Assembly (NCBI GenBank): GCA_949425635.1
Contig: CASPWD010000010.1
Coordinates: 6,194 to 70,193, forward strand
Source of the DNA: an uncultured Bacilli bacterium
Lineage (GTDB): Bacteria > Bacillota_I > Bacilli_A > RF39 > UBA660
Direction: 5' to 3'
DNA: 64,000 nucleotides
The translations under genes were made by a program, and so were the position numbers. Under the pieces are notes generated by a model. That model was not told the origin of the DNA. It worked only from the letters and a program-made list of their open reading frames with translations, and ran no database searches. Shown here in pieces: positions 1,505 through 29,380 of this stretch (position 1 is its first letter; each line of letters begins with the position of its first letter).

Positions 1505-1538
1505 AAAAAAATACAATGTTTTTTCATTGTATTTTTTA
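1505..1538 (-). terminator. Rho-independent terminator after the 1199-aa gene
   Basis: Stem atacaatg/cattgtat with a T6 loop. A/T runs flank it, directly after the stop at 1536. Confidence 0.6.
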
Positions 1539-4500
1539 TTCTGTAATTGGTTCCCAAATAGCTACTAAAGTCATTGAAGAGTTTATTATTGTTTCTGGAG
1601 TTATAAATTCTCCTTCAAGATCTTCCTTATTTTTCCATCCCATGAAATTGTATCCTTCTACAGGTGTAACACTTGGTAGTTGTGTAATTGTTCCACCTTC
1701 TTTTACTGATGTCGTAGCATTTTCCAATTCAACTTCACCATATCCTGATTCGTAATCAATATTATAAACATTAGATACTACTTCAGACCACTTTGCTTTT
1801 AAAACAATGCTTGATGTAATTGTTGTTCCTTCTACAAATGGTTCATCATTGTCTGCATAGAACCATCCAGCAAATTCAAAACCTTCTTTAGTAGCTGTAG
1901 GCAATTTATCTAATTGTTTACCTGCGACAACACTAGTTATTGCATCTTCGGCCATTTCTCCGCCATCTAACTCATAAGTGATGGTATATCTTGTTACCAA
2001 CTCTCTAGTAACAGCATATAAAGTTATTTCTTCTGCTTCTGTAGTTAAATTTCTTATTGTAATATTATCACCATAATATAGAGGTCCTTTTTCTTCTAAA
2101 GCCCAACCTATTAATTCTACATCTTCGTCATCAATAGTGTGTTCTCCTAATTCACATGGTGTATCATAAGAGCATTCTTTCTTACCAATTTCAGTTCCAT
2201 TGTAGTTGAACGAAATTGTATATTTATTTTCTTCCCATTCAGCTACTAAATTAATATCTCCTGTACTATTAGTAATTTCTGTATTTCCTTCTGCATTTAA
2301 TTCTAATGTAGTATTATTCATCTTCCAACCTTTGAACGTATATCCTACTTTTGTAACACCTGGAATAACTATTGTTTCATTATCTACGTATGAAGTTGGA
2401 AGATTTCCTTCTTGGATATTTCCACCAGCTAAGTCATAGCTTATTGTATTCCTGTATTCTTTTGTCCATTTTGCATATAGGTTAATTACATATGTTTCAT
2501 CAGAAGTTATTGAAGAACCACCTTGGTAAACAAGACCATTTTCTGTTCTCCATCCATCGAAGATATATCCTTCTTTTTCAGGATGTTCAGTTATAATAGT
2601 ACATTCATTGTATGCACAAGTATTTGCACTACCATATACAACATCGTTTTCTTCATAATAATTAATTGTAACATTTACAGGTGTCCATTCAGCTACTAAT
2701 TTAATTTCACCGATAGCTGTAACAGTCATTTTATTTCCTGCTATTTCAACATTAGATTCATCACTCTTTGCCCAACCTTTGAATGTATAACCAAGTTTTG
2801 TTGGATTTACTAGAGTGTAGATGTTTTCTTTGTCACTATCGTATTCAACATATAGAGTGTTTTCAACATCATTTGGCATTACTCCACCATCTAAGTCGTA
2901 TTTTACTCTATATTTATTTAAAGTATATGATGCCTTAACTTCGATTTCCTCTTCGTTAGAAGTTAAATTTGTTACATAATTTGATATTATCTTAGCTGAT
3001 GCACCTTCACCAATATACCAATGACTGAAAGTCTTACCTGCTATATCATCTGCTGTAAATTCAATTTGACATTCTGTATCATATGTACATGTTTGTGTTT
3101 TATCGTTATGTTTTAAAGTATATTGAATTGGTTCCCAAATTGCTTCAAGTGTAACATTTCCAGATGTTTTGATTACAAGATTGTTATCTGTAATTTCAGC
3201 ATTCTCAGATGTTTTCCATTCAACAAATTTATAACCTTTTTTAGTTGGTTCCGTTAATGGAATAGTCGTTTCTGTTACTGTATACTCAACTTTATTTGGT
3301 GTAGATACTACCCCACCATTATAGTTATATGAGATATTATATGTAATATCGCCCATCTCAGCTTCAATATTATATGTTGCTGGTACGCTTGTGTAATTTG
3401 TAACATTATTATCAATTCTTACTTTATTTCCTAAACCACCATTTTCAATATAATACCAATACTTAAATTCTTTACCTTCTACAACTGGTTCTTTGAATTC
3501 CAAAGTACATTTTTGGTCATATTGACAAGTTTTAGTTTCGCCATTATATGTGAAACTAAATTCGATTGCTGTCCACTTAGCTGTTACTTTTATAGAACCA
3601 GCTTCATTTATCGTAAGAGTTTTCTTGTCTTCGCCTATAGTTGCTGGGCCTTCAATTTCATAGCCAGCAAAATTATATCCTTCTCTTTCAGGTGAGAATA
3701 ATTGAATATTGTTTACACCATTTTCTCTAAACTCAAACTCTGTTGGATTATTTATGCTAACACTACCGCCACGATAATCGTAGCTTATTGTATATTTTAT
3801 AGTGGCATATTTATCTTCTACCACATAATTTTTACCATCTTCTGTAGTGAAGTTAATTACATAACTTGGTAATTTACTTCCGTCTTCTAAGTATAAACCT
3901 AAGAAGTCTTGTCCAGCTTTTTCGGTTGTAGTAAAGTCTAATTCACATCTTTCATCATATGTACATTTCTTTTCTTGATTGTTGTATGTAAATGAATATG
4001 TTATTTTCTCCCAATTTGCTTTTACTAGTAAATCTTGTCTTGGGAAGTCTGTTCCATCGAATGCCTTTCCATTTAGAGTCCAACCAGTAAATTTGTAACC
4101 AACTCTTGTTGGTGTAAATAGAACAATTTTTTCTGTTTCTGAGTCAAATCCATTTGTTACTTCATCATTCACATTGAATGTTCCACCATTTAAATCATAT
4201 TTGATTTGATAATCTCTTGCACTCCATATTGCATATAAAGTTATCTCTTCTTCGTTACCTAGAATAATACTCATTTCTGTTTCTGGTTGATATATTGTTT
4301 TTCCATCTGGTGTTAATGCCCATCCTAAGAAACGATATCCAGAATTTTCAGATATATTTAAACTATCGTATAATGCAAATTTACAATTATTAGGATTGGT
4401 CTCATCATAATAATGACATTCATCTAAAGTTGTTGATGAACCACCTTGGAAGTTACTATCATAAGTTACTTTGTAACCAATTTGTTCCCATTTTATTTCT

Positions 4501-5135
4501 AATGTAAGTTCTCTTCCACCTTCTGGAATTCTTGTTCCATCATCAGTTATTGAAATATTAAAGTCAAAGCATTCATACTCTCCTTTAATAGTCCAACATA
4601 CGAATTTATAACCTGGACGATTATTCAATGTTGGTTGTTGAGCTGATGTTATTTTGTCTCCATATCCAAGATATATTTCTTTTGTTTGAAAAACATCTTT
4701 TTCATATTCTTGAGCCTCAAATGTTATCTTAAATTCATCGCCCATACATGAAGAATCCATACAAACTCCATTAACATGAGTTATTTCGAAGTTGTCTCCT
4801 ACTTCTATTGCTTCTCCTGTTGTTCCGTTTCTCCAAGCACCTCTATAATTTTTGTAATAAATAATCATGTTACTAAAATTAGGATTTTTTATAGACGATG
4901 CAGCTAACATTATTGTTTGGTCGTTAAGACCTTCATATTCATCATATATTTTATTTGGATTGTCACTCATGTTTTCAGTGTTGTATATTTCGTTATCATC
5001 TCGAGTTAATAAATATGAACCAATAACATAGGATTCATTTGGAATTTCATCTATGCTTACTGCTTTTGCATCAGCAACATTTGTGTATACAAATATTGAT
5101 ATTAATATAAATAGTATCTTCTTAATTTTTTTCAT
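1536..5135 (-). CDS. Secreted 1199-aa surface protein with about 14 Listeria-Bacteroides (Flg_new / InlB B-repeat-like) modules
   Basis: Sec signal MKKIKKILFILISIFVYTNVADA. There are 14 recurrences of the G(Y/F)xFxGW module signature. RBS GGAAGGTGA lies 7 nt upstream of the ATG. Confidence 0.75.
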   Translation of the reverse strand: MKKIKKILFILISIFVYTNVADAKAVSIDEIPNESYVIGSYLLTRDDNEIYNTENMSDNPNKIYDEYEGLNDQTIMLAASSIKNPNFSNMIIYYKNYRGAWRNGTTGEAIEVGDNFEITHVNGVCMDSSCMGDEFKITFEAQEYEKDVFQTKEIYLGYGDKITSAQQPTLNNRPGYKFVCWTIKGEYECFDFNISITDDGTRIPEGGRELTLEIKWEQIGYKVTYDSNFQGGSSTTLDECHYYDETNPNNCKFALYDSLNISENSGYRFLGWALTPDGKTIYQPETEMSIILGNEEEITLYAIWSARDYQIKYDLNGGTFNVNDEVTNGFDSETEKIVLFTPTRVGYKFTGWTLNGKAFDGTDFPRQDLLVKANWEKITYSFTYNNQEKKCTYDERCELDFTTTEKAGQDFLGLYLEDGSKLPSYVINFTTEDGKNYVVEDKYATIKYTISYDYRGGSVSINNPTEFEFRENGVNNIQLFSPEREGYNFAGYEIEGPATIGEDKKTLTINEAGSIKVTAKWTAIEFSFTYNGETKTCQYDQKCTLEFKEPVVEGKEFKYWYYIENGGLGNKVRIDNNVTNYTSVPATYNIEAEMGDITYNISYNYNGGVVSTPNKVEYTVTETTIPLTEPTKKGYKFVEWKTSENAEITDNNLVIKTSGNVTLEAIWEPIQYTLKHNDKTQTCTYDTECQIEFTADDIAGKTFSHWYIGEGASAKIISNYVTNLTSNEEEIEVKASYTLNKYRVKYDLDGGVMPNDVENTLYVEYDSDKENIYTLVNPTKLGYTFKGWAKSDESNVEIAGNKMTVTAIGEIKLVAEWTPVNVTINYYEENDVVYGSANTCAYNECTIITEHPEKEGYIFDGWRTENGLVYQGGSSITSDETYVINLYAKWTKEYRNTISYDLAGGNIQEGNLPTSYVDNETIVIPGVTKVGYTFKGWKMNNTTLELNAEGNTEITNSTGDINLVAEWEENKYTISFNYNGTEIGKKECSYDTPCELGEHTIDDEDVELIGWALEEKGPLYYGDNITIRNLTTEAEEITLYAVTRELVTRYTITYELDGGEMAEDAITSVVAGKQLDKLPTATKEGFEFAGWFYADNDEPFVEGTTITSSIVLKAKWSEVVSNVYNIDYESGYGEVELENATTSVKEGGTITQLPSVTPVEGYNFMGWKNKEDLEGEFITPETIINSSMTLVAIWEPITE

Positions 5136-5138
5136 ATT

Positions 5139-6425
5139 CTAACTCACCTTCCTTGCTGATGTTCTTATTCCATCTACTTCTATTTCGATTTCTGAAGCAG
5201 TTACTTCATCCCAACCACCTTTGACATTCATCGAAGGTCTTGCACTTGAACCGCCTAAATAAACTTTTATCTCACTATTTCTAGTACCATTTTCTGTTGC
5301 GTAAGGCTTACATGTTCTTGGAGTACCATCTTGATAATATGTTAGTGGCTCACAGCCTACAGCAAATGTATTCATACGCCATCCAGCTTGATATTGACCA
5401 GTTGCGATAGCTGTTGTTGTAGTTCTACCATTAATTGTCCAACCTGTGAATGTGTAATGTGCTCTTGTAACTGTACAGACACTACTTAGGGCTGTTCCTT
5501 CATTAACAGTTCTTTGACTACCATATCCTGGACAATTGCTTCCTAAGTCTCCACCATTTGGATTGAATGATAATTGATATGTAGTAACTTTTGGAGGTTC
5601 AGGATTAACTGGATTTGTCGTTTGGTTTCGACGCCAGATTGCATAATATGTAGTATTTGATGTAATTCTTCTAGTTGTTATGTTAGATACAGTAGCATTG
5701 GAATTATTATTAAATCCAACTAATGTATAACCATTTCTTGTAGCTGTACAAGTGTTTTTAGCTAAGTCACCAGTTTTTACTGTTTGAATACTACAACCAC
5801 TGCCTAGTGTACCGCCATTACCATTAAATCTAATTGTATAAGTTGTCTCAGCTGGTTTATCTGGATCTTGTGGTTCTTCTTGTTTATTTTCTTCCCAAGT
5901 AGCAACTATTGTAATATCAGATGTTACTGGACTATTAAAGTCATATTCTGTTCCATTTAAAGTCCATCCGATAAATGTATAGCCTTCTTTTACAGGATAT
6001 ACTGGAGGACGTGATGCTGGTTGTCCTTCTTCAATAACTTGGCTACTAATATTATTACCACCATCTGTATCAAAAGTAACAGTATAATATGTTTTATCAG
6101 GTTCTACTTCTTTCCATACAGCTCTAAGAGTAATGTCTCCATTTACACTTTCACTAAAGTCATAATATTCATCGTCTAGCATCCAACCCACAAAAATATA
6201 CCCTTCTCTAGTTGGAGTTTCTGGCTGATCTGGATATGAACCTTCTTCAATAGTTATAGCAGCAATTGCTGTTCCACCTGCACTATCGAAATTGATTGAA
6301 TAAGTTTCTAAAGGGTCTTGTATTAATTCTTGTTTAGGAGTTATACAATATAATGCAATTACTGCTACTCCTACTATTAACAATAATGTATTCTTGATTA
6401 AAGTTTTCTTATTTTTATCAGTCAT
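5139..6425 (-). CDS. Membrane-anchored or secreted protein with 4 Flg_new-type repeats
   Basis: N-terminal TM segment LLLIVGVAVIALYCI. Modules: EGYIFVGWML, EGYTFIGWTL, NGYTLVGFNN, AHYTFTGWTI. I prefer the ATG at 6425 to the track's GVG start at 6437. It ends 3 nt before the next gene, suggesting an operon. Confidence 0.7.
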   Translation of the reverse strand: MTDKNKKTLIKNTLLLIVGVAVIALYCITPKQELIQDPLETYSINFDSAGGTAIAAITIEEGSYPDQPETPTREGYIFVGWMLDDEYYDFSESVNGDITLRAVWKEVEPDKTYYTVTFDTDGGNNISSQVIEEGQPASRPPVYPVKEGYTFIGWTLNGTEYDFNSPVTSDITIVATWEENKQEEPQDPDKPAETTYTIRFNGNGGTLGSGCSIQTVKTGDLAKNTCTATRNGYTLVGFNNNSNATVSNITTRRITSNTTYYAIWRRNQTTNPVNPEPPKVTTYQLSFNPNGGDLGSNCPGYGSQRTVNEGTALSSVCTVTRAHYTFTGWTINGRTTTTAIATGQYQAGWRMNTFAVGCEPLTYYQDGTPRTCKPYATENGTRNSEIKVYLGGSSARPSMNVKGGWDEVTASEIEIEVDGIRTSARKVS

Positions 6426-6583
6426 GTTAAACCACACATCCTATACTAATAATAAAATTATATCATTAGGTTCTTTAAATGTAAATCAAATAATTTATGT
6501 AATTTTGTAAATTTTTCTATATAATTATTTTAATAAAAAATATACAATTTATTCTTTATATCTTTAAATGGTATAAAAAGGCA

Positions 6584-8012: not shown

Positions 8013-8151
8013 TTTCTCTACCCTCCAATAAAATTTTAACAAAAATAGTAATCAGTTACTAGTGTTTTTGTGTTCTTTCTAAATTTAATCAATTTAAATT
8101 AATATTTATATAGTTATAATATATAGTTATATCTATATAATTTAAAGTTAA

Positions 8152-11100
8152 CTATACTTTTCTTAAGATTGATTCTTGTGGTGTGATGTTAATTATGTTT
8201 TGTTTGATTAAATAATTCATTAATTTATAAAAATGATTTAGTTCTTTGCCACTCATTATGTCTTTTCCTGTTATACCAAAGTAGGCCATTAAGCCTTCTC
8301 TAACAGATTTACATAATTTATATTCATTACTTTTTAGTATTTTTAAAGCCTCATTAGAGTCCATGCTTTCTAATCTAAGACATTCATCTTGATGAAATTC
8401 TTTTAGTAAATCATATATTATATAATCACTCATTAGGGATTTTATACCATTTATAATACGTGGATTATTCATTCTTTTAAAATATCTTTGATAATATACC
8501 TTGTGGGTTGAAGGCATTGAATCTTTATGAGCTTCATAATAAGATAAAATTGTTTCGTAAGATGGTTCTTTATCTTTATAAATTCCACTTCTTAATTTGC
8601 AAACACTCAACATTAGACAATATATACTATTGTTTATAGCAGAAGCTTTTGTCTTAAGATTTAATGTTTTTATTATTTCTATAGCACTTTTTCTTTCGAT
8701 ACTTTCCATACCGAAGAATAAATCAAAGATTTTAGTAGCAATATTTAAGTTACCATAAAATGGAAGTCTTTCGTCTTTAATTGCTTCTTTATAATAATCA
8801 AAATCAAATTTTTTAGTATTTGGATCTTCTAATATAATGAAGATATTGCGACGTATACGGTTTGTAATGCTACGCATTTTATCGATTGTTATTTTATATT
8901 TTTTAGCTAATTGTTCAACAGGAAGATTATCTTTAAATAATAATTCAATAACCTCTCTATCACTATCACTGAAATATTTTAGAATAGGAACTAAATCTTC
9001 TTCGTAGTCTATTTTTCCTTCAATTTCACCTTTTTGATATTTTCTTATTGATAGAATTGCTCTTTGATATCTTCTTCGTAGACTCGTTGTATTTTCTTTA
9101 TATATGATACTTAATTCGTCTAATGTTTTTAGAGGATGATTATTTAACTCAAATAAATAACAAATAATATCTCGTTCTTTATCACTAATTGGAAGATGAC
9201 GATCTTTTAGAATTTCTGCCATTTCACTTCTTTGGATATAATTTAAATCTGGTTTTTGAACATTTGCTTTACGTGACTTAATTAATTTAATGGCTCCTTT
9301 ATAATGGCGATAGAATGCATTAATATCTATATTAAGTTTTTCACAGATATCTGCTGATGATAATTTTTCGCCACATTCATTATATTGATTTTGAAGTCCA
9401 TGATATAAACTAAGGATATTTTTTTGTAACTCACTAAGTAAAGATTCGCTTTTATGACGGGCTATTTCTACTGCGATATCCTCATTATTAATTGTTATAT
9501 TTCTTATTTTATAATCGATGTCTATTTTATAGAAACGACTTATTACTTTATTTACATCAGATAATGCTAAACCTAAAATACTAGCTATTTCTTTATTTTC
9601 TTTGTATTCTAAAAAACGAATAGTAAGAATTTCTTTATCAAGTTTTGTAAACTTTTTAGGAAAGAACTCGAAAATGTTATCTAATTCTTCTTTTGTATAC
9701 GTTTTTGCTTCAGTTATACCAAAACGATAGAAATCTATTTTTCTGATTGATTCCGTTATGATATTAGATATTCTTGTTTTATTAAGACCTGTTGCTTCAG
9801 ATATCTTGTCATAACTGGCATCTTCAACTAAGAACATTGTTAATATTGTTCTTGCTTCTTCAGTAAAATCATATCTAGGGTGAAGATAAGGAGTATAAAG
9901 AGATTTAACTATATCTAAACGATTTGTCATATTATTATATAAATTAATACAATATTCTCTAGCATCACTAATGATATCATGGCATCTTATATAGTCCATG
10001 TTATACATATCTGCTATTTCTCTAATTGTGTATTTTTTGTCTGGAACACCATAAAATAAATCTAAGAACTTTATTCGCTCAGGGGTTAAACGATTTCTAT
10101 AATTCTTTTTTACTTCTAAATATTTTTCTTTGTTAAAAGTATTTTCTAAGATGTTAAAGACACCAAATGTAAGTTTCTCTAAACGATCAATTAAGTAGTA
10201 ATAACGATAATATAAAACACTATTCGGGAATTTATCAGCAAATTCTTTTTTATCTTTCTTTTTAAAATAAATACATTCTAAGAAAAGGATTTGTTCTTCA
10301 TTAAACCAAGCTTTATATTTTAAAAATGTTTCGTATAAAGCTTTATTGCTTATTCGATAATTTTTCTTCTTATAACCAAATTTTTGTAAATTTAATTCTC
10401 TTTCAATCGCTTCTGCTCTAACATGTGATTCAGGAGTTGTAAAATATTTTCTTATTAAAGCTATTTCGTCTGGATTTAAAAGCTCTTGATTTTCTAATGA
10501 AGCCTCAACATCTTCTAGTTTTAAGGTATCACAGGCTGCTTTTACAGCTTGGTAATTTATAATATTTTCTTGTTCTTCAATTAAACGATATAAATATTCA
10601 CCATATTTCAAAGTCATTTCTTCTTTAAATGATAAGTATTCTGGGTCTTGTTCAATACGACTTAGTTTTGTTATTAGTGATTTGTTTATCATTGTGTATT
10701 TTAAACGGCTTATCTTTAAGATATGACATAGTTCATCAGTATTATACTGACGAGTTTTTAAAGTACGATATTTGAATAATAATAATTCTTCATCGGTTAA
10801 GTCATCTTTGATAAACAAATATTTTATTATGTCAATAATACTTAGAGGACGTGTATTAAAGTTAGAATTTTGTTTAGGATGAGATAGAGTTAATCTTTTT
10901 AAAGCTATTATGTATTTAGGACTTTTCTTGTCACTATAAATTTTAAAAATTTCAAACGCTTGTTTTTGGACTCTTAGTATTTCATTAGGACTTAAGCATA
11001 ATGCTTCAGCCATCGTTTCTATTTTTATGTTATTTAGTGTACAATATAAGCAATAATATTGTTCTCCTTCCATAACACTTTTTAAAACTGCTAAAGTTTC

Positions 11101-11499
11101 TTCGTCTATATTATAAGGTGGTAGTGGTATTTCTACTTCTTTATTTAAAGAAGAAACTTGTGAAGAAAGATAGTTCGCAACAGCCGTTCTTATTTCTTTT
11201 AGTAAAGTTATTTCAAAATTATTTTTATTACCATTATAATTAATAATTGCATTACGTAAACCAACGTTACCTACTCTAATAGCTTCTAATACGTTTTCAT
11301 TATCTATTTTATTTCCAAATTTTAAAACAATATCTATTACAAGACGTAAGTAGTTATTAACAATTTTTTCTAAGGAAGAAAGGTTTCCTGCTTTATAATC
11401 TTTGTACAGATATTCTACTTCTATGGAAGATAATATTTTAAATTCACCTATTTTAGAGTGATATTCTTTTAACTTTGTTAATTCTTCGATTTTTGTCAT
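8152..11499 (-). CDS. Giant (1115 aa) sigma-70-like protein: region-2-like head plus about 10-12 tandem region-4-like HTH units
   Basis: Residues about 45-115 (NYLRLVIDIVLKF...EAIRVGNVGLRNAIINYNGNKNNFEITLLKEIRTAVANYL) align by eye to sigma-70 region 2. After that come recurrent units of the form L(S/T)xxExxIxxLxF...(EIA/ELC/QLA)xxxxIxxxxVxxxxxRxxxKI. The gene has its own promoter and RBS GGTGA. Confidence 0.6.
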   Translation of the reverse strand: MTKIEELTKLKEYHSKIGEFKILSSIEVEYLYKDYKAGNLSSLEKIVNNYLRLVIDIVLKFGNKIDNENVLEAIRVGNVGLRNAIINYNGNKNNFEITLLKEIRTAVANYLSSQVSSLNKEVEIPLPPYNIDEETLAVLKSVMEGEQYYCLYCTLNNIKIETMAEALCLSPNEILRVQKQAFEIFKIYSDKKSPKYIIALKRLTLSHPKQNSNFNTRPLSIIDIIKYLFIKDDLTDEELLLFKYRTLKTRQYNTDELCHILKISRLKYTMINKSLITKLSRIEQDPEYLSFKEEMTLKYGEYLYRLIEEQENIINYQAVKAACDTLKLEDVEASLENQELLNPDEIALIRKYFTTPESHVRAEAIERELNLQKFGYKKKNYRISNKALYETFLKYKAWFNEEQILFLECIYFKKKDKKEFADKFPNSVLYYRYYYLIDRLEKLTFGVFNILENTFNKEKYLEVKKNYRNRLTPERIKFLDLFYGVPDKKYTIREIADMYNMDYIRCHDIISDAREYCINLYNNMTNRLDIVKSLYTPYLHPRYDFTEEARTILTMFLVEDASYDKISEATGLNKTRISNIITESIRKIDFYRFGITEAKTYTKEELDNIFEFFPKKFTKLDKEILTIRFLEYKENKEIASILGLALSDVNKVISRFYKIDIDYKIRNITINNEDIAVEIARHKSESLLSELQKNILSLYHGLQNQYNECGEKLSSADICEKLNIDINAFYRHYKGAIKLIKSRKANVQKPDLNYIQRSEMAEILKDRHLPISDKERDIICYLFELNNHPLKTLDELSIIYKENTTSLRRRYQRAILSIRKYQKGEIEGKIDYEEDLVPILKYFSDSDREVIELLFKDNLPVEQLAKKYKITIDKMRSITNRIRRNIFIILEDPNTKKFDFDYYKEAIKDERLPFYGNLNIATKIFDLFFGMESIERKSAIEIIKTLNLKTKASAINNSIYCLMLSVCKLRSGIYKDKEPSYETILSYYEAHKDSMPSTHKVYYQRYFKRMNNPRIINGIKSLMSDYIIYDLLKEFHQDECLRLESMDSNEALKILKSNEYKLCKSVREGLMAYFGITGKDIMSGKELNHFYKLMNYLIKQNIINITPQESILRKV

Positions 11500-11517
11500 A
11501 CTATCACCTGAGTATTT

Positions 11518-11546
11518 ATTATAAAGGAATATGGAATTTACGACAA
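11518..11546 (-). promoter_or_regulatory. Sigma-A-type promoter of the giant sigma-like gene
   Basis: Minus strand reads TTGTCG - 17 nt - TATAAT. The -35 abuts the obg terminator. Confidence 0.55.
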
Positions 11547-11573
11547 GAAAAAAACGAGATTATTTTCTCGTTT
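11544..11573 (-). terminator. Rho-independent terminator after obg
   Basis: Stem aaacgaga/tctcgttt, then TTTTTCTT on the minus strand. Confidence 0.65.
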
Positions 11574-14073: not shown

Positions 14074-15288
14074 TTATTGATTATCTGAATTCTTTTTTTT
14101 CTTAAATAATAATTTAGTAGCTCCACTATTTTCTATTGGCTGTGGTTTGTCTACAAATGCACTTTCAAAACTATCTTGAATACAGGTTGAACCTAAATCA
14201 GAAGATTCTTCTAATATTAGCTCTTCCTCTGATAAACCAGTCATAGTTCTTAATTCTTCTAAAATATCATCGCTTGTCTTTTTCTGATTATTTTCATATA
14301 TAGCTTGCTCAACACTTCGTTCAATTGTAATTAAAGTGTTCATCAAACTATCATTAGATAAAAACAACTCATATGGAGATTTATCACTATTTGCTTTTTT
14401 AATTTTCAAATAATATTCAGCTAATCTATAAAGTACTCTTAAATGTTCTTTATATCCATCATATTTATTTTCGTTAATTTTATTAATACATTTTCTTATA
14501 TCATCTATAAAAGTATCTTGACGTTCTTCTAAGCATTTAATCTGTTCCCCTTGTGGTAGAGAAATTTTCTGTTCACATTCTTTTATTACATTCTCAACAA
14601 ATTGGTCAAAACGTTTATTTATTAAAGACTCAAAAATATGTTCCGTTCTATTATATGTTACTAACCAACTAACAAATCCGCAAATTACTCCTCCTATTGG
14701 GGTAATAACAAAAGAAAGAGGAACTCCTACTGCACAACAAGCTAAAGTGGAAATAGTAATAAATTGTTTTTTAGATGTTGACATAAACTTACTCTTTATA
14801 GAAGAACGTGTTATATAGTCTGTACTGCGAAGGAAATGTTTAAATTCCACTAATTCATTTGCATCATTAATTAAAATTTCTCCTTGATTATATAATACAT
14901 TCGCCCAATCTCTTGCAAATCTTTCACCAAGATTTTGCAATTCAAAATTATAGTTTTTTTCAATTTTCCTAAAATGACTCACTATTTCTTTATCAGCTAA
15001 TGCTTTTTTTGTTAAATGACAACGATGAACTTCATAATAGCCATTTTTCTCAACTTTTATAATTAGTGTTCCATCATTATAATTAATCCAAAAAATGCCA
15101 ACCCTACTTTTTTTGATTTCATTTTCGAATTCTGATAGATATGTAATTGATGAGTCTTCGGCTTCATTTGTGCTACTTTTTATTTCAATTCTTTTACCAC
15201 ATAACCATGGTGCTACATCTACTATATAATCATAATAAATCGTATCAGGTTCTTTTCCTTGTAATATTTTTGTATAATATCCTCTCAT
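14074..15288 (-). CDS. Hypothetical membrane protein (404 aa), paralogue B of a tandem pair
   Basis: Central hydrophobic hairpin ITISTLACCAVGVPLSFVITPIGGVICGFVSWLV. Shares NDGTLIIKV and YDGYKEHLRVLYRLAEYYLKIKK with the upstream gene. Confidence 0.6.
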   Translation of the reverse strand: MRGYYTKILQGKEPDTIYYDYIVDVAPWLCGKRIEIKSSTNEAEDSSITYLSEFENEIKKSRVGIFWINYNDGTLIIKVEKNGYYEVHRCHLTKKALADKEIVSHFRKIEKNYNFELQNLGERFARDWANVLYNQGEILINDANELVEFKHFLRSTDYITRSSIKSKFMSTSKKQFITISTLACCAVGVPLSFVITPIGGVICGFVSWLVTYNRTEHIFESLINKRFDQFVENVIKECEQKISLPQGEQIKCLEERQDTFIDDIRKCINKINENKYDGYKEHLRVLYRLAEYYLKIKKANSDKSPYELFLSNDSLMNTLITIERSVEQAIYENNQKKTSDDILEELRTMTGLSEEELILEESSDLGSTCIQDSFESAFVDKPQPIENSGATKLLFKKKKNSDNQ

Positions 15289-15315
15289 AGTTAAATCAAC
15301 CTTTCACAAATTAAA

Positions 15316-16515
15316 TTATATTTTTAAAACAAGTCCGCTACCAGGTAAAGTATTATTATCATTTTTATTAGTCTCTTCTATTTGTTTTTCACTTTCTTCA
15401 TCGTGTAATGCTAATTCAGATAATATTGTCTCATCTAACATATCGATGCTTTGATCATTTATACAGGCTTCGATTTCACTTTCTACTGCAGCTAAAGAAG
15501 TTAAAAACTCTTCATTCTCTCCAAATAAGATTGTAGTAGTCTCACCAATATTATTTTTTTTAGCAGTTAAATAAAGTTTTGCTAGACCGTACAAAATTTT
15601 CAAGTGCTTTTGATATCCGTCATATTGAGCCACTTCTATTTTTCTTATATAGTCTTCAATTTCAATAATGATTTCATCTTTTTCTTTAGTATCTTCTAAA
15701 CATTCTTCATCAAGTTCTTTTTCTACACTCTTTTCTAATGATTGTGAATCGATAATACTTTGGTTATCAGAGACAGCATGTTTTAGTTCTCTGTTAACTT
15801 TACTTATTGATACTAACTTAAAAACTTCATCTGTTAAAAATTCTTTAGCAATTAAGAAACCTACTTTAGTTACTATTTGCCATCCTAAGCCATATGGATA
15901 CCATCCTATCGTACACATGATAATTCCATCTAAAAGAAAGAGTGATAGAAGATTTGGTAGATATCTAGATAATTTTTTTCTTATATTGTCATAATTCTTA
16001 TATTTATTTTTAGCTAATATAGAAAGTTTGCTTTTATAGAAGTTAATAAATTCATCTAAGCTTGGTTGTTCTTTAAAAGATAATGGTGTTTTATTATAAT
16101 ATGTTGAATATAAAGTTTTGGTATGTTTTTCTTCAATAAGTAATTCATTATAGTTTGGTTGGAGAGATGGAAGTTCATTTAAGAAACTCATAAAGTCATT
16201 ATTTTCTTTAGCACTTTTGGTTAAAGTGAAGATGTCTTTATGGAATGTTTTTCCTACTCTATATTTAACAATTAGACTGGTTCCATCATAATAAGCAAAA
16301 TGCACTTTGCCATCCGTTAAAGCTGTAATAAGTTTTTGGCAGAAACTTTTAATTGATTCAACATAGGCATCTATACTATTTTGTTCTTTTTCTGGTTTTA
16401 GATAATGCTTTATAATATCATTTTTACAATCTAATAAGTATTCTCTTTCTTCTTGATAGGGATAATAATTTCCTTGTAAGAGTGTATCATTATATGTTTT
16501 GATTTTCTTTTTCAT
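15316..16515 (-). CDS. Hypothetical membrane protein (about 399 aa), paralogue A of a tandem pair
   Basis: Central hydrophobic hairpin LLSLFLLDGIIMCTIGWYPYGLGWQIVTKVGFLI. Contains YDGTSLIVKY and YDGYQKHLKILYGLAKLYLTAKK. I chose the start at MKKKIKTY (16515). Confidence 0.6.
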   Translation of the reverse strand: MKKKIKTYNDTLLQGNYYPYQEEREYLLDCKNDIIKHYLKPEKEQNSIDAYVESIKSFCQKLITALTDGKVHFAYYDGTSLIVKYRVGKTFHKDIFTLTKSAKENNDFMSFLNELPSLQPNYNELLIEEKHTKTLYSTYYNKTPLSFKEQPSLDEFINFYKSKLSILAKNKYKNYDNIRKKLSRYLPNLLSLFLLDGIIMCTIGWYPYGLGWQIVTKVGFLIAKEFLTDEVFKLVSISKVNRELKHAVSDNQSIIDSQSLEKSVEKELDEECLEDTKEKDEIIIEIEDYIRKIEVAQYDGYQKHLKILYGLAKLYLTAKKNNIGETTTILFGENEEFLTSLAAVESEIEACINDQSIDMLDETILSELALHDEESEKQIEETNKNDNNTLPGSGLVLKI

Positions 16516-16984
16516 AAATACCACCTTTATATTTAGGGACTTTCTCTAATTTATAATGATTATTTTTGTAGTAGGAATTTGGCTTTGAATATACATAATG
16601 CTCTGGCATTTCGTCATGTATCATATCTTTGAAATCCCAGTCCTCACAATTCATTATATACCCGCTTTTTAGAGCAACCTTCATTGAAGGTATATTCTTG
16701 CGATAAATTAGAAGATAAACAGTATCGTAGCTTGGATTTTCTGAACTTATCCAATCTGTTATTATACTGACAAATTGAGAACCATACCCCTTATGTTGAT
16801 ATTCTGCAAAGAGATAATACTCAATTGTTAAACGACCACATATAAAGATAGTAACGGCAAATCCTATTTCAATACCATTAACACGAACAATACAAACTTT
16901 TTCACGACTAAAAGACTGATTTCTTTCTTTTTTTATTTTAGCTAATTGTTCATCTGTTATATTTTTTATTACTTCATATTCCAT
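16490..16984 (-). CDS. GNAT-family N-acetyltransferase
   Basis: Acetyl-CoA motif QHKGYGSQFVSIITDW. RBS TAGGTGG. Its 3' end overlaps the next gene by 26 nt. Confidence 0.7.
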   Translation of the reverse strand: MEYEVIKNITDEQLAKIKKERNQSFSREKVCIVRVNGIEIGFAVTIFICGRLTIEYYLFAEYQHKGYGSQFVSIITDWISSENPSYDTVYLLIYRKNIPSMKVALKSGYIMNCEDWDFKDMIHDEMPEHYVYSKPNSYYKNNHYKLEKVPKYKGGIYEKENQNI

Positions 16985-24025: not shown

Positions 24026-24679
24026 TTAAATAACTTTTCTTTTTTTATTAACAGATAGATAAAATAGTATCAGTACAAATACAATAGTTAAACTTATTAG
24101 AAGTATTTTGATGTACTCACTTTGACTATCTCCTGTATCAGGATTTATTGGTATAACTAGGTCGTTATATTCTGCAACAAATTCCCAATCTACATAAGAA
24201 TATTCATCATTCTCTGTTACATCGTATTTTTCAATTAACTTTGTATTTACGACTATCTCGCCATTCATTTTTGATTTGTATTCACCTATATAAATCGTGT
24301 TTGTTAAATCTAAATTATCATGGCTGTAATCTAATCCATCCGCAAATCCACTATATAGAAGTTCACCATTCATTGTTATTTCCATCTTTATATTCTTTAG
24401 TAAATCTGCAGCAAGTTCACTTTGTTCTCTATTCTTAACTCTCATGTATAATTTGTAATCATAGTTGCTATCATTTTCAATAGTTAATCGATCTTCATAT
24501 GATGAACCAGGTACCATATCTACATGTTTCATAAAGTATTCGTCGTCATACTTAGAGCTATCATAGTATAATCTATCTCCACTACCTGTGAAGTACAGTT
24601 TATTTTCTCTAGCACTAACTATATTCAAACTAGTAAACATTATTAGTACTAGTAATAAAGATTTTAATATTTTCTTCAT
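24026..24679 (-). CDS. TasA/camelysin-like beta-rich secreted protein with C-terminal NPDTG sortase-type sorting signal
   Basis: Sec signal ...LNIVSA|RENK. VPGSSYEDRLTIENDSNYDYKLYMRV resembles the TasA PGD...N.G strand pattern. The C-terminus is NPDTG-DSQSEYIK-(19 hydrophobic residues)-NKKRKVI. Confidence 0.6.
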   Translation of the reverse strand: MKKILKSLLLVLIMFTSLNIVSARENKLYFTGSGDRLYYDSSKYDDEYFMKHVDMVPGSSYEDRLTIENDSNYDYKLYMRVKNREQSELAADLLKNIKMEITMNGELLYSGFADGLDYSHDNLDLTNTIYIGEYKSKMNGEIVVNTKLIEKYDVTENDEYSYVDWEFVAEYNDLVIPINPDTGDSQSEYIKILLISLTIVFVLILFYLSVNKKRKVI

Positions 24680-24710
24680 AGTAAACCTCCTTTATTAGGA
24701 ATTTTCATTA

Positions 24711-25445
24711 TTAAGCAACTGGATCTATTTCAACATCTGTTACTTTGAAGAAATCTTTATAAGCATCATATTGAACAGTAGAAACTGTAATCTTTAATTC
24801 GTATTCTAATCCAGAATATCCATTGCTATCAGAACTACAAACTTCTTTTTCAGATACTTTAGTTGCTCCTGCTGGGATTTCTTCTAATGAATCAACATAA
24901 GTTACTTTTCCGTCTTCACTTGTCTTATAAGAATAAGTAGTTTTACAAAGATTATTAGTGTTAGCTAATTCATTGTTTAATGTTACTGATTCTAAGTGTT
25001 GAATTGATTCTCCTTTTGCTAAAGCTTTATTGTAGTAGTAAACATTGTCTTTAATAATCCAATTAGCAGCATATTCCTTGTTTAAATTTTTAATTACAAC
25101 ATCTTCGTCTTTACCATCAACTTTTATTTTACCAGTTTTTTCAACTTTTGCGCCTCTTGAACCATCAGCATTGATTTCATACCAAGATTCTTCCATTTCA
25201 ATACGTACTGCAACAGGTACATTACCAGTGTTTGTTACATGTATTGCTTTATCAACTGTTGATCCAGGTTTCCAATCTTCTCCATCTTCTGGATTAAAGA
25301 ACTCTTCAATTTCAGTTTTGTAAACATCTGTTTTGAAAATATTTGGGAATTCTTTAACACTAGTGAAGTATGCAATTGTTCCTCCTACTACTCCTACAAT
25401 AGCAAGTAAAGCTATTGCAACTATTGGCATTTTTTTGTTTTTCAT
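24711..25445 (-). CDS. TasA/CalY/BsaA-like exported protein with SipW-cognate-type signal peptide
   Basis: The N-terminus MKNKKMPIVAIALLAIVGVVGGTIAYFTSVKEFPNIF resembles TasA ...GGGTWAAFND. It also has KPGSTVDKAIHVTNTGNVPVAVRIEMEESW. Confidence 0.65.
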   Translation of the reverse strand: MKNKKMPIVAIALLAIVGVVGGTIAYFTSVKEFPNIFKTDVYKTEIEEFFNPEDGEDWKPGSTVDKAIHVTNTGNVPVAVRIEMEESWYEINADGSRGAKVEKTGKIKVDGKDEDVVIKNLNKEYAANWIIKDNVYYYNKALAKGESIQHLESVTLNNELANTNNLCKTTYSYKTSEDGKVTYVDSLEEIPAGATKVSEKEVCSSDSNGYSGLEYELKITVSTVQYDAYKDFFKVTDVEIDPVA

Positions 25446-25546
25446 TATTCTCTACTTCCTTCCTTTTTCTATCTATATCAAAATCTAACACTACCATATG
25501 CTAAACTTTAATATCAAAATTAATATCAACCAAAACCCTTATACTT

Positions 25547-26194
25547 TTATTTTAAAGTCCATTCTACGTTGTTATCTTTATCTATACTTACAGATTCCAC
25601 AGAGTCTCCCCACAATGATTTTATTGCTTTTGGAGTAGCTTGAACTGCTTCAAAATTAAAATCTAATTCATACATTGCTTGTAAATAATCATCAAACTTA
25701 GGAGATGTCTTAACATCATCATTTAAATAAATTGATTCTAATATTTGAACACGTTCATTAGAACTACCTGCTTCTGTTAGTACTCTTTTATAGTAATACC
25801 AACCATCGTTACCTAATTCGAACTCTTTTAGCCATGCTTCTGTCCAACCTTTATCAACAACATCAATGTATTCATCATTGATTTTTAATCTATTACTTAA
25901 GAAAATAATTGATTCATCTTCCTGTATTAGCTTCCACATCTCATTGTAAGAAACTCTTAATACAACAGGTGTTTCATCTTTATTAACAATACTAACTTGT
26001 TTTACTCCCCAAGTTCCATTAAACACTTCTTCTATTTGAACATCGTAGTTAGCAACATTAAACTTATTATTAAAAGCATAACTATTACTAAAGAATGCCC
26101 AAGTAAAACCAATTACAAAAACAAGAGAAAGAGCAATTATAAGTAATATTTTTTTGCTTTTTATTTTACGTAATAAATTATCATATTTATTCAT
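25547..26194 (-). CDS. TasA/CalY/BsaA-like exported protein with SipW-cognate-type signal peptide (paralogue)
   Basis: N-terminus ...LSLVFVIGFTWAFFSNSYAFNNKF, plus KQVSIVNKDETPVVLRVSYNEMW. Confidence 0.65.
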   Translation of the reverse strand: MNKYDNLLRKIKSKKILLIIALSLVFVIGFTWAFFSNSYAFNNKFNVANYDVQIEEVFNGTWGVKQVSIVNKDETPVVLRVSYNEMWKLIQEDESIIFLSNRLKINDEYIDVVDKGWTEAWLKEFELGNDGWYYYKRVLTEAGSSNERVQILESIYLNDDVKTSPKFDDYLQAMYELDFNFEAVQATPKAIKSLWGDSVESVSIDKDNNVEWTLK

Positions 26195-26265: not shown

Positions 26266-29200
26266 TTATTCATTAGGTGGAGGTGGAATTGGATCAGAAT
26301 TCGTAATATAAGTCATTACTAGTATAATGGTATTATTGTCAGTTTTAATAACAGAACAATTATAGTTTGTATAATTTAATGGCGTAATCGTCCAACTATA
26401 ATCAGTATCTAACCCCTCCCAGTTATATGACCATTTATTTTCAGCACTTAAATCTACTGTGTCATAAATTTCTTCATTTTTCAACAAAACTATGGTAAAA
26501 ATCGCTGGCCTTTTACTTTCATTTCCTTTATCATCCCATAAAACTTTTACATTTATTTTATCATTTTGTGTTTGTTCACAGCTATCACCTGTGGAAGGTA
26601 AACATTCACCAGGCAAAAATTCAATAACAAATATATCTCCATCATGTACTTCTAATCCTGGAACTGGTGTTATGGTATCCCACTCCTTTTTGAAATTGTA
26701 ACCAATTAAAGGTGCAACTTTTGGAATTCTATCTTCTGTCAGATACGCTTTACCACTTTTATTTAAATTTCCTTCTTCATCATATAATGGTATATCTATT
26801 GATATTTCATAAGACTCCTGATAGTCGCTTGGATATACATTCTCTCCAAAAAAGAAATATCCATTTATTACTTTAAAATAAATTCTTACGGTTTCTGCTG
26901 ATGGCTCATCAGGATCTGGTATGTCTTCACCATAAGTATTAGTTATTGTAACAGTAGTACCTGATTGGGTAATAGATGAAGTATAACCATCAGGGACATC
27001 TATCTCACCAACTACCCAAGTATTTCTATTGTTAAGATTTTTCCATGTATAAGACCACTTATTATCGTTATTTAATGTAATTGGAGAACCATAAGGCTCA
27101 TCATCTCTATAAAGCTGAACACTAACACTAGCAGGTCTTTCAGCCTCAGAATCACCAATCCACACTTTTTGTATTGTTAATGAAGTATAAGATGGACCTC
27201 CTCCTGGATTATCTGGTCTTCCATTAGTAACATCTTTCACCTCATTAGAAACTCTTCCATCAGAATGATAATAACCTTTTCTATGATGTTTATTAGTAAA
27301 TTCTACAGAATATTTTTCACCTAGCTTAACTTCAATACCCTCTCCATTATCACTAATATCTCCAGTAACGCTTTCTAAAGTATATTCCTGAGGTACTACC
27401 TCTTTAATGTAATAAGTATCATCTGGTTCTAAATATAATACTTGCTCTTCATTGTTAGTTAAATTTAACCAACTATCATAACCATTATCACTTGTTATAT
27501 GAAATTGGAAAACTTTATCAGTACTATCTTCGTTTAATACCTTTTTACTAATTTTTAATTCTGGCCATATATCAAATGAAGCGGTTGCTTTATATTTTTC
27601 TTTAGCTTCTTCGCTAGTATCTAAATCATTATTATCAGCAGTAGCACCTAATATTTCAACCATATTAACAATGGTTCCTATATCATTTTCTGCTACTTCA
27701 TAAGTAGCTTTAACAATAACACTACCTTTAGCAGGAATGCTTGGTATTTCTACTACATGAGTAGACCTAATATTATAAGTATCATTATTATTTATGAATT
27801 GAGCATTAACATTGTGTTCCTTGACAATAACATTTTTTATTTCATAATTTTCGGAATTTGTAACAATAATATTATACTCAACAATGTCACCTTTTTTATA
27901 GTAATCTTTTTTGTTGATAATTTCTTTACTGATAGATGGAGCAAATATTTTTCTTACTATTTTCCATTCTCCATAAACAATTACATTTTCTTCTGGCATT
28001 ACAAAATTATCTTCTTTATACCATCCTTGGAAATGATATCCATTACTATATTCAGTAGCTGGAATATCTTCTACTATAGGTAATTTTACTTTTTCACCTG
28101 GAGCATATGTATTATCTTTATTATTTAATTCATTTAGTATTTCTCTGTAATTAGGAGGTCTTACACCATCTTGGAAGGCGTAGGTAACTTTATATTTGAT
28201 TTTTTCCCATCTTCCTACTATTTCAACATTTTTGGATGGCATTATAAAGTCTTTATCACTAGAAATATTTACATCAGTTGTTTCCCATCCTAGGAACGTA
28301 TATCCTTTAAATACATCACCAGCATTCATACTATCCACTTTTACAGTTTCATTAGCGTAATAGCTACTTGTAAGAGGTAAAACATATCCACTAGGCTTAT
28401 CATCACCATCTATCCTATATGCCACTTCATATTTAGGTAATTCAGTAAAATAGCCTTCTAGTACGACTTCATCAGATTCATTTTCAAATGAAGGCATCGT
28501 AAATTTACCATTAGTTATTTGTAGACTTAGTGGGTCAACTATTTTCCAACCACTAAAGGTATAACCCTCTACCTTTGGCTCGAAGGCGACGTTAACTACG
28601 CTATTAGGAGCATATTCTTGAGTATCAGGAGCACTAACATTTGGAGGAACTATGGTACCATCAACTGGATTGTTTACTAATCTATATCTAACTTTATTAA
28701 CAGATGTTTTCTTTGTTTGAATCCAAGCGTGAGTCATATTAGATTTAGCCATCTGAGTACCTTCCCAAGCTGTTGCGGTATTATAAAAGTCTTTTTTATA
28801 CCCTTCAATAGTCTTTGGAGTCTTAGTTATAATTCCAACATCTAACTTACAGCCTGCTGTTAGATTTTTGATTTTAAAAGTTATTTTTCTTGTTTCTTCA
28901 TCATAATGTAGGCCATGATTATTTTTAGGGTCTGTTGAACTTCCAGAATCATTAACAACATAACCATTACACTTACCTGCAACACTGCTATCTCGTTTTG
29001 TGGCTCCAAGTACTTGGTCATCATCACCTACAAAATTAAATTTTTGAAATTCTAAGCCGTCTGGCAGAATATCTTCAACATAAATGTAACCACTCTCTAC
29101 TTTAATAATTTTTGGTTTACCATCTGTATTTAATAATTCGCTAGACTTATCACTATTTCTATCTACACCATCATAAGAAACTGATAAAGTATAAGCTAGT

Positions 29201-29346
29201 TCGGAATCCAAATCTACTTGTAAATCAAAAATATTTTCTAATTTTTCCATTTTTGTAAACTGTAATAAGATAAATGTTGTTAAAGCAACTAAGACAAGAC
29301 AAATAGCTAATACAGATTTATTTGTTTTTCTTTTATGTTTTTTCAA
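26266..29346 (-). CDS. Large adhesin: Flg_new repeats, DUF11-like and SpaA-like modules, two Cna-B-type modules
   Basis: N-terminal TM. Flg_new modules EGYTFSGWKI, KGYTFLGWET, NGYHFQGWYK. DUF11-like KKGDIVEYNIIVTNSENYEIKNVIVKEH. Cna-B-like QKVWIGDSEAERPASVSVQLY and VKVLWDDKGNESKRPAIFTIVLL. No C-terminal LPXTG. Confidence 0.7.
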   Translation of the reverse strand: MKKHKRKTNKSVLAICLVLVALTTFILLQFTKMEKLENIFDLQVDLDSELAYTLSVSYDGVDRNSDKSSELLNTDGKPKIIKVESGYIYVEDILPDGLEFQKFNFVGDDDQVLGATKRDSSVAGKCNGYVVNDSGSSTDPKNNHGLHYDEETRKITFKIKNLTAGCKLDVGIITKTPKTIEGYKKDFYNTATAWEGTQMAKSNMTHAWIQTKKTSVNKVRYRLVNNPVDGTIVPPNVSAPDTQEYAPNSVVNVAFEPKVEGYTFSGWKIVDPLSLQITNGKFTMPSFENESDEVVLEGYFTELPKYEVAYRIDGDDKPSGYVLPLTSSYYANETVKVDSMNAGDVFKGYTFLGWETTDVNISSDKDFIMPSKNVEIVGRWEKIKYKVTYAFQDGVRPPNYREILNELNNKDNTYAPGEKVKLPIVEDIPATEYSNGYHFQGWYKEDNFVMPEENVIVYGEWKIVRKIFAPSISKEIINKKDYYKKGDIVEYNIIVTNSENYEIKNVIVKEHNVNAQFINNNDTYNIRSTHVVEIPSIPAKGSVIVKATYEVAENDIGTIVNMVEILGATADNNDLDTSEEAKEKYKATASFDIWPELKISKKVLNEDSTDKVFQFHITSDNGYDSWLNLTNNEEQVLYLEPDDTYYIKEVVPQEYTLESVTGDISDNGEGIEVKLGEKYSVEFTNKHHRKGYYHSDGRVSNEVKDVTNGRPDNPGGGPSYTSLTIQKVWIGDSEAERPASVSVQLYRDDEPYGSPITLNNDNKWSYTWKNLNNRNTWVVGEIDVPDGYTSSITQSGTTVTITNTYGEDIPDPDEPSAETVRIYFKVINGYFFFGENVYPSDYQESYEISIDIPLYDEEGNLNKSGKAYLTEDRIPKVAPLIGYNFKKEWDTITPVPGLEVHDGDIFVIEFLPGECLPSTGDSCEQTQNDKINVKVLWDDKGNESKRPAIFTIVLLKNEEIYDTVDLSAENKWSYNWEGLDTDYSWTITPLNYTNYNCSVIKTDNNTIILVMTYITNSDPIPPPPNE

Positions 29347-29380
29347 TTACAGTTCACCTCCTTAAATATTTATATAACTA

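Follow-up and report, generated by a model that had tools for sequence, protein, structure and literature searches.

A giant sigma-70-family protein with a degenerate head and an array of region-4-like modules in uncultured gut Bacilli of the order RF39

The domain plan of sigma-70 factors, which belong to the best-studied bacterial proteins, is treated as fixed: one sigma-2, one sigma-3 and one sigma-4 domain. A locus of an uncultured Bacilli bacterium of the RF39 lineage raises the question of what a protein of this family does when its head is degenerate and is followed by about a dozen modules of the region-4 type. The DNA in question (hereafter the window) is a stretch of 64,000 nucleotides from assembly GCA_949425635.1, contig CASPWD010000010.1, positions 6,194 to 70,193 of the forward strand. 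An earlier reading of the window, made without database searches, had proposed a giant sigma-factor-like protein with a single region-2-like head and about 10-12 tandem region-4-like helix-turn-helix (HTH) units, an architecture that it considered unusual. The open reading frame (ORF) was confirmed: it occupies window 8152..11499 on the minus strand, comprises 1115 codons with an ATG start and a stop, encodes a giant sigma-70-family protein with a degenerate head, and its translation contains all peptides quoted in that sequence-only reading. The architecture, a sigma-like head plus approximately 10-12 region-4-like units with significant matches to region-4 profiles, is indeed unusual for the sigma-70 family. 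What had to be given up was the notion of a one-off fusion between a region-2 module and HTH units: the protein is instead a degenerate-head member of a family whose typical members carry complete primary-like sigma cores (regions 1.2-4.2) in front of the same array.

Full-length homologs of the window protein were found by searching 5.8 billion proteins, and an exhaustive search with the C-terminal 826 residues among 1.84 billion representatives recovered no more than 190 clusters (formed at 50% identity), of which 137 had E values below 1e-30. In almost all family matches the array aligned as a single colinear stretch from approximately residue 380, and nearly all full-length matches were 1150-1235 amino acids long (typically about 1200); the longer members (1357-1503 amino acids) had no extra recognisable domain hinting at a function. 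A complete core is present in most members: among 19 aligned ones, Pfam detected Sigma70_r2 in 17, Sigma70_r3 in 13 and Sigma70_r1_2 in 10. The intact cores show the motif FSTYAxxWIxQAI of regions 2.3/2.4, IRKPVH, region 3 and LGxTRERVRQIExKAL of region 4.2, and over regions 1.2-4.2 they are nearest to RpoS, RpoD and SigA (about 160-190 bits; PDB RpoS E 2e-41, SigA E 7e-38). Since they remain far below the cut-offs of the RpoD models (164-174 bits on PRK09210, cut-off 572; 159-172 bits on RpoD_Cterm, cut-off 354), they can be described as primary-like but divergent; the window protein itself reached 14 bits on PRK09210, the RpoD equivalog model. The ancestral plan of the family is a complete primary-like core (regions 1.2, 2, 3 and 4) followed by a fixed, colinear and ancient array of about twelve highly diverged four-helix HTH modules of the region-4 type. 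The family is restricted to one lineage, the uncultured gut Bacilli related to Candidatus Coprovivens (order RF39), and its loci come from metagenome-assembled genomes (MAGs) of rabbit, mouse, chicken and other gut samples; Candidatus Coprovivens has been placed in the family CAG-1000 of that order (PMC8035907). Where members have a database label at all, it is generic, as in "RpoD/SigA [Candidatus Coprovivens sp.]" for one and "sigma-70 family RNA polymerase sigma factor" for some others. Among Pfam and NCBIfam, no curated model spanning the array was found, and neither was a description of a giant sigma factor with such an array in the full-text literature searched; the family, with its array of about twelve modules, is an undescribed variant within the sigma-70 family.

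The window protein is a member of the sigma-70 family by descent, because it is 35-44% identical over the full length to proteins with the domains r1_2, r2, r3 and r4, occupies the same genomic position and has sigma factors as all of its top fold matches. Its head, however, retains only part of the ancestral core, as follows.

11158..11499, minus strand: residues 1-114, remnant of regions 1.2, 2.1 and 2.2 (IVNNYLRLV, GNVGLRNAI); alignment, predicted local distance difference test (pLDDT) about 80-90.
11104..11157, minus strand: residues 115-132, low-confidence linker in which about 75-80 amino acids are missing in comparison with the intact homologs (IRxPVH and all of region 3); alignment, model.
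10927..11103, minus strand: unit U1, residues 133-191, remnant of the canonical region 4, with TRERVRQIE changed to SPNEILRVQ and no Pfam match on its own; profiles, alignment.

In the head, residues 12-93 can be aligned at weak scores with SigG, RpoS and RpoD, and this only over regions 1.2-2.2 (NCBIfam E 2e-8; PDB RpoS E 0.011); the Pfam Sigma70_r2 model gave no match in the window protein at E values up to 10, and neither Sigma70_r3 nor Sigma70_r1_2 was detected there by Pfam. The aromatic cluster of region 2.3 had been said to be replaced by L, L and K; the aromatic residues of regions 2.3/2.4 are absent, as is the whole motif FSTYAxxWIxQAI in the alignment with intact homologs, but the aligned residues are T, K and E. 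Two features had been overlooked, namely the deletion of region 3 and the identity of the first repeat unit as the remnant of the true region 4: U1 stands at the canonical position and aligns to region 4 of the family, but its -35-reading segment TRERVRQIE is replaced. The same state was seen in two relatives (L004 and L006), whose heads, like that of the window protein, have no 2.3/2.4 motif, no IRxPVH and approximately 75-80 residues less (all of region 3), with the reading helix of region 4.2 replaced and the helices resembling regions 1.2, 2.1 and 2.2 kept. A profile of the intact core scored 57-66 bits on these three proteins versus 228-463 bits on the full-length intact-head copies in the analysed loci. 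Moreover, the -10 and -35 reading helices vary even among the six aligned sequences with a degenerate head, a type that was found in four representative clusters only (P0001, P0003, P0020, P0021). Overall, the heads of the 86 clusters with a complete array were intact in 53, weak in 23 and vestigial or absent in 10.

The window gene and its counterparts in L004 (protein P0002) and L006 share the gene block rplU-prp-rpmA-obg-X-flavin adenine dinucleotide (FAD)-dependent protein-Flg_new proteins, in which X is the giant gene, and obg-linked copies with an intact core occur in the same block (L001, L008, L009, L012-L014, L018). Located immediately downstream of obg, the window gene is thus the positional ortholog of copies with an intact core. 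A functional link to the obg neighbourhood was not found, in agreement with the sequence-only reading, yet throughout the orthologous group the giant gene keeps its place immediately after obg. Between these two genes, the spacer varies: it contains an unannotated ORF of 286 amino acids in one relative (L001:9100-9960), two ORFs of 183 and 178 amino acids in another (L034:6785-7948), and that of the window (83 nt) is empty. Intact copies of a second clade are located elsewhere, in unrelated contexts in which dnaG is not nearby.

In a tree of the shared array, the window protein and those of L004 and L006 formed a clade sister to the obg-linked intact copies. The head diverges faster than the array in this degenerate sub-clade, with a head/array identity ratio of 0.55-0.70 versus 0.94-1.28 in both intact clades, and its array is as conserved as in the intact relatives. 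One MAG of the sub-clade, MGBC100111, contains the degenerate obg-linked copy (L006) together with a second copy that has an intact head (L030). The latter gene (L030:9905-13563) has a single frameshift in an A-run, which reflects an error in the assembly or else a disruption of very recent date; apart from this, its head is intact and scored 389 bits on the core profile. Some MAGs carry two or more giant sigma genes in tandem (L024:5674-12943; L026:7904-17496; L027:179-8702), and the vestigial heads of the L027 copies (22-25 bits) suggest a decay of the head independent of that in the clade of the window protein. In two assemblies from one study (L034:8001-11597 and L035:808-4404), the obg-linked giant gene is broken by an in-frame TTA to TAA change in region 4.2 (RERVRQIEAKA*KKVKPYM), leaving a 269-amino-acid sigma ORF and a 922-amino-acid array ORF, both open. 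This stop could be a nonsense mutation of recent origin, a split with a function of its own or a site of read-through; as a case of a natural division into a sigma gene and an array gene it was set aside as ambiguous, a single nucleotide change being no proof of a two-gene arrangement.

For the array, 13 candidate units (U1 to U13) were delimited from the helices of an AlphaFold2 model, and unit profiles cut from a 108-member family alignment were compared pairwise with hhalign. The whole window protein matched Pfam Sigma70_r4 (E 2.1e-14, 53 bits versus a cut-off of 24.1, in 3 stretches) and Sigma70_r4_2 (E 2.4e-9, 37 bits versus a cut-off of 25.7), the significant matches being located in U6, U7 and U10. 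In scans of the units as single sequences, these three again matched r4 or r4_2, with E values of 1e-4 to 1e-3, and weak matches were obtained for U5 and U8. In the profile-profile comparison, U1, U2 and U5-U10 were mutually related with a probability of at least 90% (scores 31-62), U11 was connected through U5, U6, U8 and U9, U3, U4 and U13 were related to part of the units with 84-96% probability, and U12 was doubtful. The controls remained low: a sigma-2 profile reached at most 4% versus every unit, and reversed or column-shuffled profiles gave a maximal score of 16.2 and a maximum of 7% in 216 comparisons. As a non-circular check, a pooled profile of the extension units without U1 found region 4 of SigA in the PDB (E 7e-7 to 3e-5), aligned to its C-terminal part 4.2; it also matched YlxM (E 3e-7), GerE (E 2e-4) and the sigma-4 domains of sigma factors of the extracytoplasmic function (ECF) type. 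In the PDB, the best match of this pooled profile was 8vd6_A, "CAP REPEAT", probably a designed repeat protein, with five 33-residue repeats resembling helix 2-turn-helix 3. Judged by these profiles, the array is composed of 12-13 diverged four-helix units, nine of them firmly homologous to region 4, three probably so and one doubtful, in line with the original estimate of about 10-12. The units beyond U1 are listed below.

10642..10839, minus strand: U2, residues 221-286, sigma-4-like; hhalign 98% to U1.
10372..10554, minus strand: U3, residues 316-376, irregular helical, probably degenerate sigma-4-like; 89-94% to U5, U9, U12 and U13.
10138..10347, minus strand: U4, residues 385-454, probably degenerate sigma-4-like; 84-93% to U5, U6 and U7.
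9928..10131, minus strand: U5, residues 457-524, sigma-4-like; UPF0122 E 0.006, r4 E 0.26, profile-profile comparison.
9715..9906, minus strand: U6, residues 532-595, sigma-4-like, recognition helix with invariant S578, N579 and R586; r4 E 1.3e-4, profile-profile comparison.
9499..9693, minus strand: U7, residues 603-667, sigma-4-like; r4_2 E 8e-4, profile-profile comparison.
9259..9486, minus strand: U8, residues 672-747, sigma-4-like, with an inserted loop YGIKxxYNxxG; r4_2 E 0.03, profile-profile comparison.
9025..9231, minus strand: U9, residues 757-825, sigma-4-like, the most conserved unit (LPISDKEREII...RRYQRAI); family alignment, profile-profile comparison.
8818..9006, minus strand: U10, residues 832-894, sigma-4-like; r4 E 2.9e-4, profile-profile comparison.
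8581..8802, minus strand: U11, residues 900-973, sigma-4-like; 91-96% to U5, U6, U8 and U9.
8386..8559, minus strand: U12, residues 981-1038, helical, relation to the other units doubtful; profile-profile comparison.
8194..8358, minus strand: U13, residues 1048-1102, conserved motif MNGKDINH, probably degenerate as a unit; profile-profile comparison, family alignment.

Comparison of the window protein with itself by BLASTP found no internal repeats, because the units are too diverged (4-24% identity to each other), and profile methods were therefore needed; an alignment of the region 4 profile to the whole-family profile with alternative alignments recovered only some units at weak significance and was superseded by the unit-by-unit comparison with controls. 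Each unit is approximately 30-65% identical to its own orthologs and has a signature specific to it. Since these values contrast with the 4-24% between units, and the number and order of the units are fixed across the family, the array is judged to be old and specialised and not a recently expanding repeat. The recognition helices are net basic in all clear units (family means of +0.5 to +4.5), and U6 and U9 have invariant S, N and R where region 4.2 reads bases.

The AlphaFold2 model, built on a 19-sequence family alignment, was all-helical with a mean pLDDT of 83.5 and a recurring pattern of helix(11)-helix(8)-turn-helix(19). In a PDB fold search with the whole protein, all 50 of the 50 best matches were sigma-factor chains; with the array alone, the top 50 PDB matches were again all sigma factors, although weak (best E 0.027, TM score at most 0.24), and nothing significant was found in a viral structure library (best E 0.002). 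Neither the PDB nor the viral library yielded a structure sharing the overall arrangement of the array. A separate model of the six units U5-U10 reached a pLDDT of 89.4 and a predicted template modelling (pTM) score of 0.71, and this score suggests that the array forms a packed helical body and not beads on a string. Generic helical repeats of the TPR or HEAT type were rejected, since Pfam gave no such matches and the top 50 PDB folds were sigma factors for both the whole protein and the array. The earlier reading had named such a fold, or a lack of any r2 and r4 profile matches, as what would speak against it; significant r4 matches and sigma-type folds were found instead.

Taken together, these results are best explained by a pseudo-sigma factor with a decayed head, which would have lost the ability to recognise and open promoters alone and whose function would lie in the array, with multivalent DNA binding as its likeliest form; we regard this explanation as reasonably probable. 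On its own, the window protein would probably not start transcription any more and would exert its effect through the array. A head without the -10 recognition and melting motif of regions 2.3/2.4, without region 3 and without the -35 reading helix of region 4.2 would be incapable of self-sufficient initiation, and the selected function would then reside in the array. Multivalent DNA binding is predicted for the latter from its basic recognition helices and from the invariant polar and basic residues at the base-reading positions of region 4. Since the array of the intact members continues from the C-terminal end of region 4, its contacts are proposed to extend upstream of the -35 element; the version with the decayed head might bind at these sites too but not initiate there, or might at most serve to tether RNA polymerase via the surviving 2.1/2.2 helices, and would thus modulate the intact paralogs and not replace them. 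The roles of a DNA organiser and of a tether for RNA polymerase, which had been put forward before, are compatible with this picture, while a decoy role has no specific support.

Several points weigh against this explanation. The faster divergence of the head is a measure of amino acid identity and not of the ratio of nonsynonymous to synonymous substitutions; the intact-head second paralog was seen in one MAG of the sub-clade and not in the genome of the window itself; and the window protein as a whole is only mildly basic (pI 8.7, net charge +15). HTH modules of the sigma-4 class also act as protein-binding surfaces. Furthermore, the absence of region 3 is shared with group 4 (ECF) sigma factors, and the head keeps 2.1/2.2-like helices and folds confidently, which makes a residual sigma activity possible. 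In a first alternative, the protein would be a still-working minimal factor of the ECF-like layout (sigma-2, short linker, sigma-4) with unusual promoters, to which the array is attached as an anchoring or regulatory C-terminal extension. Apart from the retained 2.1/2.2-like helices (pLDDT 80-90), this is consistent with the alignment of residues 41-179 of the L006 protein to positions 2-157 of the sigma70-ECF superfamily model (E 4e-10), and with ECF factors being naturally without region 3 and some of them having C-terminal extensions, as stated in two reports (PMC3426412, PMC8999054). The window protein also scored above the cut-off of the TIGR02937 model (51.3 versus 42.9 bits), but this score sums four stretches and comes through array units, the best stretch being U10 (834-885) and not the head; the best full-length relatives, in turn, are primary-like and not ECF. 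With Pfam Sigma70_r2 unmatched, U1 alone matching nothing, the -10 and -35 reading helices unconserved even among the degenerate heads and the head diverging faster than the array, a working sigma factor of this kind seems unlikely.

The array could alternatively serve as a scaffold for proteins instead of binding DNA, its modules contacting anti-sigma-like partners, regulators or parts of the RNA polymerase surface such as the beta-flap tip; the protein would then act as a decoy or hub by a logic similar to the sigma mimicry of PhyR. Region 4 of sigma factors is a well-known protein-binding module that interacts with the beta flap, anti-sigma factors and activators; the confident U5-U10 model suggests a packed body rather than independent DNA readers, and the conserved signature of each unit at 4-24% identity to the others would fit as well. 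On the other hand, no conserved partner gene adjoins the giant gene, the neighbourhood is variable beyond obg and the FAD gene, and the clade of the second paralog stands in unrelated contexts; the recognition helices are net basic in every clear unit, and no receiver or anti-sigma-binding signature was found with Pfam and NCBIfam. We therefore consider a pure protein scaffold quite improbable. The idea of a pseudogene in decay, or of an artefact of annotation in an AT-rich genome, is very hard to maintain, even though the head of the protein is degenerate and other loci of the family carry a frameshift (L030) or an in-frame stop (L034): a 3.3-kb open frame at about 26% G+C (25-27% at the gene) is far beyond chance, the degenerate type is still encoded by a complete ORF in sequences only 43-50% identical, the array has kept the same degree of conservation as that of intact relatives, and upstream of the gene there are a ribosome-binding site and a promoter-like site. 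This candidate was accordingly disfavoured on the grounds of the long open frame, the full-length ORF in diverged relatives and the conserved array.

The decayed-head pseudo-sigma can be extended to a more speculative scheme, in which the array would be a modular reader of more than 100 bp of upstream DNA, functioning as a built-in "activator" of extended promoters, and the decayed-head or headless paralogs, arisen by duplication and decay of the head, would be dedicated antagonists at the same sites, forming a sigma/anti-sigma pair via competition for DNA; in its boldest variant, the giant sigma factors would be the principal sigma factors of a lineage with reduced genomes. We see this scheme as tentative and rather doubtful. 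No other sigma factor gene was found in the 64-kb window or in approximately 600 kb of related loci. A search with an intact-head query returned a 401-amino-acid primary-type sigma factor (P0232; 324 bits on an RpoD model) encoded beside an S10 operon, which was not tied to the giant-sigma lineage, sharing no genes with the family loci. On this low-GC (30.5%) human-gut contig (L033:6880-9206), a gene for a 370-amino-acid sigma-like protein and that for the 401-amino-acid sigma factor are located directly upstream of the S10 ribosomal operon and not next to dnaG. RF39 has been reported to retain the genes for activation of sigma-E and sigma-G (PMC10868615), and this, together with the low scores of the giant heads on the RpoD models, indirectly favours an ordinary sigma repertoire in the genomes with giant sigma factors.

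The signals around the window gene were as follows.

11504-11509, minus strand: ribosome-binding site AGGTGA; sequence pattern.
11518..11546, minus strand: promoter-like match TTGTCG-17-TATAAT; pattern match only.
11552..11573, minus strand: hairpin plus T-run, terminator-like, after the obg stop codon; pattern match.

The TTGTCG-17-TATAAT promoter and the obg terminator of the sequence-only reading are thus present as pattern matches only, and promoter-like matches were not enriched in this AT-rich region (35 versus 27.6 +/- 5.4 expected from shuffled sequence). Its statement that the gene is monocistronic is not established, because no terminator-like site is present in the 109 nt that separate the stop codon from the next gene. 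This spacer before the gene for the FAD-dependent protein contains a small AT-rich tandem repeat (window 8102-8150, periods of 13 and 21 nt), which is overlapped by the promoter-like site of that downstream gene; a tandem-repeat search of the window found no repeated DNA array usable as a multi-site target.

In the wider surroundings, no partner gene conserved beside the giant sigma gene was found, the neighbours varying beyond obg and the FAD gene. A sigma factor of a defence system was rejected as a candidate, since the window protein had no PADLOC match and its neighbours are housekeeping genes; in PHROGs, it matched generic sigma-factor families only. Two adjacent ORFs of 404 and 402 amino acids at window 14074-16524 (minus strand) have no match in Pfam and are tandem paralogs of each other, diverged to 24% identity (E 3e-12); they sit between the M50/GNAT genes and rplU and are absent from this place in L001. 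Three consecutive ORFs of 217, 244 and 215 amino acids at window 24026-26194 (minus strand) also have no Pfam match. Clusters of large predicted surface or adhesin proteins are present at window 1536-6437 and 26266-32074 (minus strand), including Flg_new (Listeria-Bacteroides) repeat proteins of 1199 and 432 amino acids, a Cna_B/SHIRT and a VWA protein (1026 and 897 amino acids, respectively); in most of the obg-linked relatives for which sequence downstream was available, synteny with the giant-sigma locus was seen for the Flg_new pair.

Among known proteins, the group 1/2 sigma factors (SigA/RpoD, RpoS) are those from which the window protein descends: the intact members align with them over regions 1.2-4.2 and carry FSTYAxxWIxQAI, IRKPVH and TRERVRQIE. 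They differ in that the intact giant heads fall below the RpoD cut-offs (354-572 bits) and all members add an array of about 850 amino acids, the window protein, in addition, being without regions 2.3/2.4, region 3 and a functional region 4.2. To our knowledge, additions to sigma factors have been limited to short single domains on ECF factors. In ECF groups such as ECF41, ECF42 and ECF56, a fused C-terminal extra domain modulates the sigma activity, according to published reports (PMC3426412, PMC8999054, PMC5766207). The giant protein resembles these in being a C-terminally extended sigma factor, and its degenerate head is ECF-like in the sigma-2, short-linker, sigma-4 layout; yet what is added there to true ECF cores is one SnoaL-like, TPR or zinc-binding domain of about 100-200 amino acids, while the core of the giant sigma factors is primary-like in origin and the extension consists of about 12 repeats of the sigma-4 fold.

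PhyR, in which an ECF-like domain is combined with a receiver domain and binds the anti-sigma factor NepR, likewise keeps a degenerate sigma-like domain for a role other than promoter recognition, but neither a receiver domain nor a partner was seen at the giant sigma factor; a PhyR-like sigma mimic was rejected, a response-regulator domain being found in none of the 19 family members. The pooled unit profile relates the array to YlxM/UPF0122 and to the C-terminal domains of GerE/LuxR, which have one module per polypeptide in contrast to twelve in a fixed order, each with its own signature. The tandem nucleic-acid-reading helical arrays of c-Myb R1R2R3, TALE and mTERF are similar in concept only, as serial small helical modules that could track DNA: there is no relation in sequence or fold, the units of the giant sigma factors being about 65-75 amino acids long and very divergent, with DNA binding only predicted. 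MzaA, the large sigma factor of the MZA anti-phage system, is another large protein of the sigma-70 family, and its model is matched by intact giant heads (PADLOC E 5e-33; NCBIfam 137-160 bits); the match, however, does not extend beyond the sigma domain and stays far short of the 800-bit cut-off, and the window protein has neither a PADLOC match nor a defence context.

The giant family therefore sets itself apart by an approximately twelve-fold sigma-4 array behind a complete primary-like core, colinear across at least 190 clusters, with repeated loss or decay of the head while the array is kept. Its hosts are abundant uncultured gut bacteria (RF39). The family suggests an unrecognised coupling of promoter recognition to extended contacts with DNA or proteins, and its intact, decayed-head and headless members constitute a natural series for working out the role of the array.

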